From the NCBI GenBank assembly GCA_963755915.1, contig CAVWLP010000003.1, forward strand, positions 1,152,001-1,216,000: 64,000 nucleotides of DNA. The letters run 5' to 3'. The DNA is from an uncultured Phycisphaerales bacterium (GTDB taxonomy: Bacteria; Planctomycetota; Phycisphaerae; Tepidisphaerales; Tepidisphaeraceae). Below are positions 4,599-61,576 of this stretch, in pieces. Every line of letters begins with the position of its first letter. The first letter of the stretch is position 1. A program made the position numbers and the translations under genes. A model generated the notes under the pieces. It was given only the letters and a program-made list of their open reading frames with translations. It had not been told where the DNA came from and ran no database searches.

Positions 4599-4832
4599 AG
4601 AATTGCCGTCGGAGAATTGGGCCGGCCTCTATCACCCCTCCCCTGGTACTCCTGACCGCCCGACACTTTTTTAAGTTGGGAGACGAATTCAGCGATCGCG
4701 TATCCCCACCCCACACATGTATCCGGCGCGCTCATCGCCAGCGAAACGCCGCCGCATATTGCCTTTTAGGGCTGGACGGTTAGATGGCATGTTGGTTGTC
4801 GGGCTAGCCACCGTCGACTAAACCCGACAACC

Positions 4833-5972
4833 ATGAAACACAATTCTTCTAAAGGTAGCCGCAAGGCCTCCCAAGTTCGAGGGGAGAGAGTCTCGAAGCC
4901 CAATCAGTCGCACGAGGTGATCAAACTCGGCGTGGATACCCACAGCCAGCAATATACCTTCGCACGGATGGTCGATCATCAGGGGATTCAACCGGCCCAA
5001 AAACTCTCGCCGGCCGTCTTCATCGAGTTTCTCAAAAAGCAGCTGACGCTGGCCAAACGCGTGGTGATGGTCTACGAAGCCGGTCCCTACGGCTTCGCGT
5101 TGCACCGCGAAGCCACCGCCCTGGGCGTAGAGTGCCTGGTCTGTGCCCCCGAACGTCTGTCCCGCGGCCGCAAGAGAGTCAACGACAAGATCGACGCCAC
5201 CGAACTGCTCTCGCGTCTGGACCGGCATCTCGCCGGCAACACGACGGCGCTGCGTCTGGTGCGTGTCCCCACGGTGGCCCAGGAGATCCACCGCCGCCTG
5301 GGGCGCGAGCGCAACACCTACCGAAAGGAACGGCAGCGCTGGATCGCCCGTGGACGAAGCCTGCTGCACAGCCTCGGCATCCATCGCCCGGGAAAATGGT
5401 GGGAGCCGCTGGCGTGTGAGCCGCTGCTGAAAAAGCTGGAAGAACTCTACGGCTCAGAACTGATCGAACCGATCCGCAAGGAGCTTGCCCGCGACCTGGA
5501 GATGGTAGAGATGATGGACCAGAAGCGAGATGAACTGACCCGCCAGCTCTGCGCGGAGGCCAAGTCCCGCGAATCGGCCCGGATCAAGGGAATCGGACAC
5601 CTCAGCTATGAGCTGCTGGATCGTGAGATCGTCGACTGGAATCGCTTCCAGAACCGCCGGCAGATCGCCAGCTACACCGGGCTTTGCCCTGGAGAATCCT
5701 CCTCAGGCCAGAGCCGGATGAATCTGTCGATCGACAAACATGGCAACCGCCGACTGCGCACGGTGCTGGTGGAACTGGCGTGGCTGCTGCCCAAGTTCCA
5801 GCCGGAGTATTTTCGTCTGAAGCGCTGGAAGCAGGTCTTCGAGAACCCCGGAGCCAGAGCCATGCGCAAGAAAGCCGCGGTGGCCTTGGCGCGGCAACTG
5901 GCGGTGGACCTGTGGCGGATCAAAACCGGCCGGGTCAAAGCGCAGGATCTGGGCTTGAAACTGGCAGCGTAA
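4833..5972 (+). CDS. IS110-family DEDD recombinase/transposase
   Basis: GVDTHS, YEAGPYGF and NDKIDA (DEDD); C-terminal SYTGLCPGESSSG...IDKHGNRRLR. Confidence 0.95.
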   Translation: MKHNSSKGSRKASQVRGERVSKPNQSHEVIKLGVDTHSQQYTFARMVDHQGIQPAQKLSPAVFIEFLKKQLTLAKRVVMVYEAGPYGFALHREATALGVECLVCAPERLSRGRKRVNDKIDATELLSRLDRHLAGNTTALRLVRVPTVAQEIHRRLGRERNTYRKERQRWIARGRSLLHSLGIHRPGKWWEPLACEPLLKKLEELYGSELIEPIRKELARDLEMVEMMDQKRDELTRQLCAEAKSRESARIKGIGHLSYELLDREIVDWNRFQNRRQIASYTGLCPGESSSGQSRMNLSIDKHGNRRLRTVLVELAWLLPKFQPEYFRLKRWKQVFENPGARAMRKKAAVALARQLAVDLWRIKTGRVKAQDLGLKLAA

Positions 5973-6300
5973 AAAGCCGGCCAAGGTTGTCCCCGAACTT
6001 CTGGAGCCTGGATGGACGACGGATAAAGAGCTTGGAATAAAAGTGAAAGAGACGAGCCACGGTGTAACGCGCCCGTTTTCCCCTATGAGCGCCCTTGAGC
6101 GTTCGGCGGTTAGATTGGGTCAGCGTGAACCGCCTGCAACGGACGTATTAGACCATGGTGTACTGGCAAACCGCCAGGTACGGATAGCAGGAAGAGCGTT
6201 GCCGCAATGATGGCAACAGCCCATGCAGAGCGGACACTGACAGGCCGAGCAACAGCTTAAAAAGACAAAAGAATAAAGGCGGCGAATGCGGCCCACACTT
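5973..6300 (+). ncRNA. Putative bridge/seek RNA of the IS1111-type element (boundaries approximate)
   Basis: Contains TTCCCCTA (6078-85) and CGGTTAG (6107-13), matching both strands of the reconstructed target, and ATAGCAG (6184-90), matching the circle junction; hairpins lie between the guide halves. Confidence 0.7.
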
Positions 6301-6498
6301 GACAACCAACATAGCAGGGGAAGGGAAAGAGGGTGGAGGGGGTGCGGGGGAGGCGGGAGAAAAACCTTGGGGCCTTATGGGTTGTCTCCCGCCTCCCCTG
6401 CATTGCTTTTGCATTTGTCTTCAAAAGAGCCGGCCGCTTACTCCTCGAACTCAAAAAATGTGTCGGGCGGTCAGGTACTCCGGGGGAGGGTTGGGGGC

Positions 6499-60087: not shown

Positions 60088-61576
60088 TAATCCCGTTCGG
60101 CACGGGGTTCGCGCAAGCAGCAAGATATTGAGATTGCGCCTTTGATCTTTTTATGGCATGCTGCCGGACGTGCAGGCAAGACTGAAGGAAAAAGAGATCC
60201 TGTGCCTCGGACATCTGCGGCGCGTCTTGCGCTGCTGCCCACGCTGCGGGATGTGGGCTGTGAGCGGGATCGAGCCGGGAACCGCCAGCTTCACTTCGAC
60301 GATTATTGCAAGCTGGTTTTGCTTTACACCTGGAATCCGCTGATCCAATCCCTGCGGGATCTTCAGGAGGTTGCTGAAATGCCCAAGGTGGCCAAGGCGC
60401 TGGGAATTAAGCGTTTTTCCGTGGGCAGTTTCTCTGAATCGGTTCGGGTGTTCGAGCCGGGGCGTTTGACGCCGCTGATTGAGGAATTGGCGGGGGAACT
60501 GCCCCAGGCGCCCGATCCGCGTCTTGCGGACTTTGGGCAGGCGATCACGCTGGTCGACGGGACGGTGCTGACGGCGCTGAGTCGGCTGGCCAAATCCGCT
60601 TGCGGCATCGATGCGCGCTACAACACCTCCCGGGACGGGAAAGCGGTCTATGGCTGGCGTTTGCACGTTCAATTCGATCTGGAGACGTTCAAAGTCCATC
60701 GCCTCGACCGCACTGGCGCTCGCAACGCGGGGGCCAACCGTGAAAACAACGTCCTGCGGCGCAGCCTGGAAGCAGGACGGTGCTATGTAGGAGACGGCGG
60801 CTACGCCGACCGGAGCCTCTTTGCGGACATCGCCGCGGCGCAAAGCTCCTTTGTGATGCGGGCCGCGGAAAACTCGGTGTTTGAGCTGTTTGAAGAACGA
60901 TTGCTTTCACAGGAAGCATTGGACGGCGGCGTGGTGCGAGACGCGCTGGTGAAACTCGACGGCCTGGAGACGGCGGCGGATAGGGTGGTGCGACGGGTGG
61001 AAGTGCAGGTGAAACCCCATCCGCGCCGCACGCGCAGCGGCAACAAGCCGACGGACCTGATCATCCTGTACACGAACCTGCTGGACCTGCCGGCGGAATT
61101 GATCGCCCTGATTTATCTGTACCGCTACACCGTTGAGTTGTTCTTCCGGATCTTCAAGCAACTGCTGGGCATGCGTCACCTGCTGAGCCAACGCCAGGAG
61201 GGGATCGACATCCAAATCCACTGCGCGCTGATCGTCTGCGTGCTGATTCAGCTGATCAGCGGCAGGAAGCCGAACAAGGCGATGCGGAACATGATCGGCT
61301 GGTATCTGCTGGGGCTGGCCGAGGAACAGGACGTGCTTCGATTCCTGAACAAGCCGGATAACACCGGGATTAAGCTGAGGGCAAGAGCGGAGGCCTTGAA
61401 AAAACTGGGAGTAAACTGAAGGGGAATCCGTCGCCGCGGAGACCTCGCGGTTGATGCTGCGCTCTTGCGGACGCCGGCGTGCAGCAGGGGAAAGTAAAAG
61501 TATCTAAGCTTCAATTGTTTCGCGTCCTCCACAGCTTTGGAATGCTCCGATGAAGCCTGCGTGCCGAACGGGATTA
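60088..61576 (+). mobile_element. IS4-family insertion sequence, complete
   Basis: Perfect 17-bp TIR TAATCCCGTTCGGCACG; 9-bp TSD CTAATCTGG at 60079-87 and 61577-85. Confidence 0.93.
60158..61419 (+). CDS. IS4-family transposase (probable frameshift near 60230)
   Basis: LVDGT, VGDGGY, IYLYRYTVELFFR.FK; N-terminus MLPDVQARLKEKEI lies in the adjacent frame. Confidence 0.9.

Follow-up and report, generated by a model that had tools for sequence, protein, structure and literature searches.

A predicted bridge RNA with readable target and donor guides in an IS1111-type insertion sequence of an uncultured Phycisphaerales bacterium

Described IS110-family elements and the present locus

The IS1111 group is defined by subterminal inverted repeats of 7 to 17 bp and short terminal extensions (PMC11208160). 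Among its members, the seekRNA elements ISEc11, ISPa11, and ISKpn4 carry a non-coding region 3' of the transposase gene (tnp) together with subterminal inverted repeats (Siddiquee et al. 2024, PMC11187229). As described there, IS1111 seekRNAs hold two short target matches, the top-strand match lying 5' of the bottom-strand match and the two overlapping at the insertion point; relatives are naturally re-targeted on a conserved scaffold, and a junction promoter is expected. The bridge RNA of IS621 has two modules whose left and right guides read opposite strands of target and donor, and the element encodes a recombinase of the DEDD plus Ser family and inserts into a repeated extragenic element (Durrant et al. 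2024, PMC11208160; Hiraizumi et al. 2024, PMC11208158). ISPpu9 and ISPpu10 of Pseudomonas putida, which also belong to the IS110 family, target REP sequences, with recombination taking place at an invariant AG dinucleotide (PMC12288879). The same source documents junction promoters for ISEc11, IS621, and ISPpu10, that of ISPpu10 being a hybrid promoter.

These features have observed or predicted counterparts in an element that lies in a 64-kb window (the whole stretch of 64,000 nucleotides that was analyzed). Window positions 4782 to 6317 most probably comprise an intact IS1111-group member of the IS110 family with a bridge/seek RNA, that is, a two-module RNA that would read both target and donor, and we put the probability of this reading at roughly 0.88. 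Its RNA is a bridge RNA or seekRNA of established type, with no new mechanism; the literature already describes AG cores, REP targets, junction promoters, and 3' RNAs.

The locus nevertheless departs from each described system. Relative to IS621, the RNA lies 3' rather than 5' of the gene, the guide order is reversed, the core is AG rather than CT, the right target guide (RTG) would pair over 8 to 11 nt rather than 4, and the donor module is predicted to form a three-way junction rather than an internal loop (PMC11208160, PMC11208158). ISPpu9 and ISPpu10 are IS110-group elements without subterminal repeats that use an unrelated REP family, and ISPpu9 carries an extra mobile sRNA module (PMC12288879). 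The recombinase here has 379 amino acids (aa), compared with the 330 to 350 aa quoted for IS1111 transposases (PMC11187229), and the host lineage differs from that of the ISEc11 group, the nearest named relatives being Tepidisphaeraceae and Phycisphaeraceae metagenome-assembled genomes (MAGs). The second RNA domain here also covaries with both element ends, a point that PMC11187229 did not address.

A full-text literature search found no paper on this subfamily, which ISfinder or the figures and supplements of Durrant et al., both outside the scope of that search, may list; it likewise found no paper on IS1111 donor-guide covariation beyond the manual inspection in Durrant et al. The locus offers a clean natural case for reading all four guides of an IS1111-type bridge RNA and comparing them with occupied, empty, and re-targeted sites. 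It also yields a covariance model and guide map for a soil-borne subfamily with a long (8- to 11-nt) RTG and an AG core, as well as comparative support for a second IS1111 RNA domain reading the element ends, which the seekRNA work left open. The subfamily could serve as another orthogonal programmable recombinase.

The gene and the element ends are as follows (window coordinates).

4782-4783, + strand: left copy of the AG core dinucleotide (presumed crossover site), the sole sequence common to the left flank and the right end (RE); empty sites read ..CGGTT-AG-GGGAA..
4784-4788, + strand: left-end extension ATGGC (right donor, RD+1 to +5); ATGG is the partner of the RNA motif CCAT and covaries with the RNA 4-mer across lineages
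4789-4800, + strand: left subterminal inverted repeat ATGTTGGTTGTC, a perfect 12-bp reverse complement of 6301-6312
4833-5972, + strand: IS110-family (IS1111-group) DEDD/Ser recombinase gene, 379 aa, assigned from NF033542, PF02371, and invariant residues
6301-6312, + strand: right subterminal inverted repeat GACAACCAACAT, the counterpart of the repeat at 4789-4800
6313-6317, + strand: right-end extension AGC plus the right copy of the AG core (6316-6317)

This IS1111-type insertion sequence of 1536 bp has the left junction GACGGTT-AG-ATGGCAT (AG at 4782-4783) and the right junction AACATAGC-AG-GGGAAG (AG at 6316-6317). It shows the IS1111 hallmarks, namely, 12-bp subterminal inverted repeats, a short left end (LE) of 49 nt (4784-4832), and a right end of 343 nt (5973-6315) with a long non-coding region 3' of tnp, and its end features agree with the group definition given in PMC11208160 and PMC11187229. 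The left subterminal repeat doubles as the 5' arm of a stem, TTGTCGGG .. CCCGACAA (4792-4829), that stops 3 nt short of the transposase start codon. A Shine-Dalgarno-like sequence was not visible ahead of that codon in this stem region.

Together with these end features, the protein bears out the original assignment to the IS110/IS1111 recombinases: it matched the NCBIfam model NF033542 ("IS110 family RNA-guided transposase") at 163.8 bits, relative to a curated cutoff of 140, and Pfam PF02371 with an E value of 8e-16. The window protein had no match to Pfam DEDD_Tnp_IS110 (PF01548) even at E values of up to 1, whereas 8 of 20 close relatives matched this family (best E value, 2.9e-06). D35, E82, D118, D121, and S291-G292 were invariant in an alignment of 20 relatives. 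When turned into a profile, this alignment matched the recombinase structure of IS621 (8wt6; E value, 1e-4) in the Tnp domain only, which is the extent of the protein likeness to IS621, and placed S291-G292 on the IS621 S241 loop (S241-G242 region); the catalytic roles of the residues are those given for the IS621 recombinase (PMC11208158). Of 8000 scored candidates, 2397 were protein relatives at E values of ≤0.001; in the host's class, a match at ≤1e-60 was found in 1 of 400 further genomes.

Between the transposase stop codon and the RNA lies a mini-ORF of four codons, ATG GAC GAC GGA TAA (MDDG), placed 5 nt after a GGAG (6003-6026). Roughly 10 of the 15 close relatives have a version of it (MDDG, MHDG, MEDG, or MHDP); the versions differ at third codon positions and use all three stop codons, and none occurs in a more distant group at 41 to 47% amino acid identity. 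It could instead be an RNA or DNA motif (..CGGATRR) that resembles ACGGATAG beside the left donor guide.

Target site and target guides

The genome to which the window belongs is assembled in 3 contigs, with a completeness of 81% and a contamination of 8%; searching it identified six copies of the element that were 100% identical over 1536 bp. The empty site and the AG core first became apparent at one place in this genome, where the left and right flanks aligned as one continuous stretch and overlapped by 2 bases. The empty target with an AG core that had been predicted is well represented: the uninterrupted 12-mer CGGTTAGGGGAA, which lies within a REP-like repeat, occurs at 12 genome sites, relative to 0.79 expected by chance. 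All six copies occupy this site exactly and face the same way with respect to the REP unit; their left junctions read GGACGGTT-AG and their right junctions AG-GGGAA[G/A]. None of the 25 sites with exactly one mismatch was occupied (37 sites match at up to one mismatch). Beyond the REP-like unit, the flanks of the copies are unrelated.

6318-6425, + strand: right half of the REP-like target repeat (GGGAA.. and then a long GC-rich hairpin); the 12 empty sites fold alike

The target lies ~18 nt 5' of this hairpin (GGGGGAGGCGGGAGA..TCTCCCGCCTCCCC), which marks the landing pad of the element and whose core motif has 66 genome copies at up to 2 mismatches. Sub-threshold, miRNA-like Rfam matches on the REP hairpin (6326-6421) were discarded as spurious.

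An independent soil run from another study (X5) contained a variant of the element that shows 18 differences and a single gap in 1549 aligned bases (99%). Since this variant fits the window only from 4773 to 6322, it has the same target half-sites in another context. None of its listed differences falls inside a guide, and the one within the RNA core (6174 C>T) still allows pairing, as G-U. The search for copies in unrelated targets, which the original prediction had named as an outcome that would speak against it, returned all six copies and the X5 variant in the same target. The identical copies and the intact frame argue for recent movement; identical copies and natural re-targeting in relatives also suggest that the system may be, as first proposed, intact and reprogrammable.

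Two of the copies, at positions 1386086 (+) and 1812312 (-) of contig C2 of this genome (G000), have ~212 bp of left flank in common at 97 to 100% identity and differ in their right flanks, which may reflect a local repeat or an IS-associated rearrangement. Another repeat of ~1.5 kb, at window positions ~60088-61576, has more than 20 near-identical genome copies, one of them in the window, and is probably another insertion sequence.

The four short motifs on which the original prediction was built are all in place in the non-coding region, the first two of them as the candidate target guides.

6076-6085, + strand: RTG loop TTTTCCCCTA, a hypervariable block in which TTCCCCTA (6078-6085) is complementary to top-strand T-AG-GGGAA
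6106-6113, + strand: left target guide (LTG), hypervariable; CGGTTAG (6107-6113) equals the top-strand left target plus core and would pair with the bottom strand

We compared this region with DNA from close relatives (63 to 73% amino acid identity), comprising Tepidisphaeraceae and Phycisphaeraceae MAG records plus fourteen metagenome contigs (L050 to L063); only 2 close relatives are full length, and most of the comparative data come from short metagenome contigs. The second, large group of relatives at 41 to 47% identity came from the same metagenome scan, the metagenome DNA amounting to 80 loci. Across the aligned relatives, a conserved ~180-nt core 3' of the gene contains exactly two hypervariable blocks, which are TTCCCCTA and CGGTTAG. 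The LTG loop strand ends in AG in every relative, followed by AU and the 3' strand of the outer stem, and the bases ahead of this AG are those of each relative's own left flank.

The match of each guide to its own flanks was then set against its match to the flanks of other relatives. Beyond the core, the contiguous LTG match averaged 3.43 nt in 14 cognate pairs and 0.71 nt in 176 non-cognate pairs; RTG complementarity to the core plus right flank averaged 9.0 nt in 12 cognate pairs and 4.43 nt, with a maximum of 7, in 124 non-cognate pairs. The observed sum was reached in 0 of 20000 permutations for the LTG and for the RTG alike. The LTG test was run without L050, whose left-end variant escaped the search pattern, and without L051 and L061, which have no left end on the contig; the RTG test was additionally run without L050 and L056, whose right flanks are too short, and without L052, for which a right end was not found. 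Because nearly all members of the 41 to 47% group have one guide and one target, this group was left out of both tests. One row in both tests is L131, from an unpublished genome (G283), on which the result does not depend and whose specifics need permission to publish. The covariation check proposed for homologous non-coding regions accordingly supports both target guides and, at the subfamily level described below, the donor guides.

That the individual matches are short but strong when taken jointly had been part of the original argument. When the non-coding region was shuffled 5000 times with its dinucleotides preserved, 100 shuffles gave an LTG-like match of at least 7 nt, 35 an RTG-like match of at least 8 nt, and 129 a left donor guide (LDG)-like match of at least 7 nt, but none gave the LTG and RTG matches together. 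The joint argument holds in this respect for the target guides; the right donor guide (RDG) motif CCAT carries no weight by itself.

The RTG nucleotide that would pair with the core A is at position 9 in the window and L058, at position 10 in L031, L053, L055, and L033, and at position 11 in L060, L063, L065, and L136; in L032 and L057 the core A is mismatched by the RTG. Weak LTG or RTG matches were seen in L055, L063, and L065. Relative to its flanking stems, the RTG register shifts by one or two nt between relatives (window columns 6076-6087), whereas the LTG register is fixed. At this locus the top-strand match comes first, in agreement with the guide order described for IS1111 seekRNAs (PMC11187229).

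RNA fold and donor guides

The RNA and its parts, with the fold of the donor module taken from the window's minimum-energy structure, are predicted as follows.

6060-6239, + strand: bridge/seek RNA core of ~180 nt, closed by the stem 6060-6064 / 6235-6239 and conserved in 14 close non-coding regions with covarying stems
6067-6126, + strand: target-binding module, with outer stem 6067-6075 / 6116-6126, an internal loop, and hairpin 6086-6105
6130-6233, + strand: donor-binding module, a predicted three-way junction with closing stem 6130-6137 / 6225-6233 and hairpins 6160-6181 and ~6196-6220
6153-6156, + strand: RDG, CCAT, complementary to left-end ATGG (4784-4787)
6184-6190, + strand: LDG, ATAGCAG, equal to right-end ATAGC plus core AG (6311-6317)

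The consensus fold of the 14 close non-coding regions has 45 pairs, 10 of which show compensatory change. A covariance model of 132 positions (R1) has a single match in the 64-kb window (6065-6194, + strand, 119.9 bits) and detects the RNA immediately 3' of the gene in 43 of the 76 other loci (E values of ≤1). Over 46 distinct sequences, 92.1% of cells were paired, relative to 30 to 46% with partners slid, and 16 of 31 pairs changed on both sides; these figures lean towards structure because the alignment was fitted to the R1 model. The hairpin that had been placed between the members of each guide pair keeps its pairing through compensatory changes in relatives, in both cases. Single-sequence folding was not better than that of shuffles (z = -1.12 for 5973-6317 and z = -0.82 for 6056-6250), and no Rfam family matched the RNA region.

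R1 also gave weak matches directly 3' of the gene in four relatives at 33 to 42% identity (L136, L135, L138, and L033), with E values of 0.14 to 2.4, which is at or near chance level. The conserved ..AG-AU-GGGG motif that follows the LTG is also seen in plasmids of proteobacteria and in a Verrucomicrobia MAG. Given that this motif recurs in the relatives at 33 to 42% identity, the scaffold looks far wider than this subfamily, on the basis of sequence reading more than of model scores.

As a correction to the first reading, the comparison points to donor guides that lie in a multi-loop rather than in a simple internal loop, the closing stem being made with sequence that follows the last hairpin on its 3' side. 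Our first consensus fold, in which GCAGGC (within the left donor guide) paired with GCCTGC, was set aside for the 6130-6137 / 6225-6233 stem. In the close group the two are equally compatible, with the GCAGGC/GCCTGC stem 97.6% paired and the 6225-6233 alternative 93.3% paired and neither showing compensatory change. We preferred the latter because other subfamilies replace the donor closing stem wholesale with different yet complementary sequences (CCGGTCTGC/GCAGACCGG, TTCCTCTTCC/GGAAGAGGAA, and CCCGCCG/CGGCGGG) and because the window's minimum-energy fold also pairs 6130-6137 with 6225-6233, leaving ATAGCAG single stranded. We therefore read the donor module as a three-way junction, in which CCAT would lie between the closing stem and hairpin 6160-6181 and ATAGCAG between the 6160-6181 and ~6196-6220 hairpins. 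Donor nucleotides in a multi-loop have been reported for many IS1111 orthologues (Durrant et al., PMC11208160).

Since the element ends and the RNA donor positions are invariant in the close group, the donor guides could not be tested for covariation there. CCAT, which stops short of the core, is a trivial 4-mer that gains weight only from comparison with relatives. Of 9 lineage representatives, 7 carry an exact reverse complement of LE bases 1 to 4 at a distance of 18 to 29 nt 5' of the LDG, with five different 4-mers.

Close group: left end ATGG, RNA 4-mer CCAT, just 5' of the fourth hairpin
L065: left end ATGC, RNA 4-mer GCAT
L103 and L033: left end ATGA, RNA 4-mer TCAT
L136: left end ATCC, RNA 4-mer GGAT
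L138: left end ATAC, RNA 4-mer GTAT

The remaining two representatives miss base 1 only (e.g., L091, TCAA), and in L033 the RDG match continues over the core (TCATCT). The LDG heptamer in turn tracks the right-end extension, whose states are AGC, AGG, and AGA.

ATAGCAG: right end ..ATAGC, close group, invariant together with the RE
ATAGGAG: right end ..ATAGG, 41 to 47% group
ATAGAAG: right end ..ATAGA, three proteobacterial plasmid relatives (Cupriavidus/Mycetohabitans)
CATACAAG: right end ..CATACA, Agrobacterium plasmid, by eye

Exceptions were confined to one locus each: L050 has LE ATCGC with CCAT, L128 has LE ATGGC with TCAA, L096 has ATAGAAG with RE ..AGG, and L126 has RE ..AGA with ATAGGAG. 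The donor covariation amounts to a handful of lineage-level events (~7) rather than many independent ones, and at this subfamily level it supports both donor guides as predicted from sequence.

Proposed mechanism and alternative explanations

The anatomy, target specificity, structural conservation, and guide/target and guide/donor covariation observed here can be fitted to a mechanism whose transcription, RNA-protein binding, circular intermediate, chemistry, and junction promoter would be those of IS621, ISEc11, and their relatives. Transcription of the 3' non-coding region would yield a two-module RNA of ~180 nt. In the target module, the LTG and RTG pairings would overlap at the AG core, while the donor module would read the element ends from its three-way junction. 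The recombinase, with a RuvC-like DEDD domain and a Ser-containing Tnp domain, would use this RNA to join the circular RE-AG-LE junction with CGGTT-AG-GGGAA in the REP-like repeat, and strands would be exchanged at the AG.

The circle may also create a junction promoter.

6299-6304, + strand: TTGACA, candidate -35 element of a junction promoter formed only in the circle, identified from sequence, with function by analogy with ISEc11, IS621, and ISPpu10

Joining RE to LE would give TTGACA (6299-6304), 17 nt, and CATGTT (4788-4793), with a TG one base upstream of the second hexamer. The count that had been proposed for this junction is right; the second hexamer, however, matches TATAAT at only 3 of 6 positions, which makes the candidate a weak consensus match, and the joined form was not seen among the contigs of the public runs, which held no RE-LE circle joints. 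The right ends of relatives retain TTGAC[AC], and the spacing is not conserved in distant relatives. No sigma-70-like promoter was found inside the linear element, nor was a terminator-like site found on the + strand. Contigs from two RNA libraries overlap positions 5950-6173 and 5764-6008, although contigs cannot show transcription, strand, or ends.

We weighed three other explanations of the locus. It is conceivable, if quite improbable, that only the target module functions, as a short seekRNA, in which case the CCAT and ATAGCAG matches would be incidental or belong to protein-binding or processing sequence and the ends would be recognized by the protein via the subterminal repeats and target-derived flanks. 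An 82-nt ISEc11 seekRNA with target matches only was indeed enough for the element to move, in work that left open what the long form does (PMC11187229); moreover, the RDG here has only 4 nt and lacks the core, the chance-level R1 matches in distant relatives align the target half only, and four single loci break the donor pattern. This explanation nevertheless leaves unaccounted for that, in 7 of 9 lineage representatives, five 4-mers track five left-end starts at one structural position, that the RNA heptamer tracks three right-end extensions, and that distant relatives, by eye, also possess a donor half with a matching 4-mer and heptamer.

We regard it as highly improbable that the conserved 3' region serves the transposase mRNA as a structured 3' untranslated region or terminator, or acts as a regulatory RNA, and that its likeness to the flanks comes from carried target-derived sequence. 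The unremarkable single-sequence folding and the negative search for a separate promoter in the linear element would fit such a role. However, flank sequence carried over in this way would match one strand contiguously, whereas the variable blocks match each relative's own, differing flanks on opposite strands with an overlap at AG, and a search of the + strand found no terminator-like site. Equally improbable is the idea that the element is a dead relic whose identical copies arose by segmental duplication or as an assembly artifact instead of by transposition. The two copies with a common left flank and the contamination and incompleteness of the three-contig assembly lend themselves to it, but the remaining flanks show no relationship outside the REP unit, every copy, having identical DNA, keeps an intact open reading frame, and a near-identical variant lies in another context in an independent run. 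The two-module bridge RNA of an intact element is thus the reading that we prefer.

Within that reading, a more far-reaching proposal is that IS1111-type bridge RNAs of this family use a recognition geometry that differs in substance from that of IS621, with the second core base as the sole true overlap, asymmetric strand exchange, and no IS621-type handshake. The three-way-junction donor with its RDG on LE bases 1 to 4 only and never on the core, the sliding RTG, and the AG/GG junctions of the 41 to 47% group would mean such an asymmetric geometry, which we offer as a tentative and rather unlikely possibility. By eye, nothing 3' of the RTG or RDG matched the bases expected for non-cognate handshake guides.

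In the relatives at 41 to 47% identity (L064 to L129), left junctions always read ..TT-AG-ATGAC and right junctions mostly ..ATAGG-GG-TTAGG, with AG in L084 and L111 and GA in L124 as exceptions, and an uninterrupted site in the L090 flank reads ..ATT-GG-TTAGATG. These junctions and the L090 site suggest that the first core base differs between donor and target and that the two junctions keep different versions of it. In one locus of this group, L123, the right end plus the target half-site is duplicated in tandem (~1990-2130).
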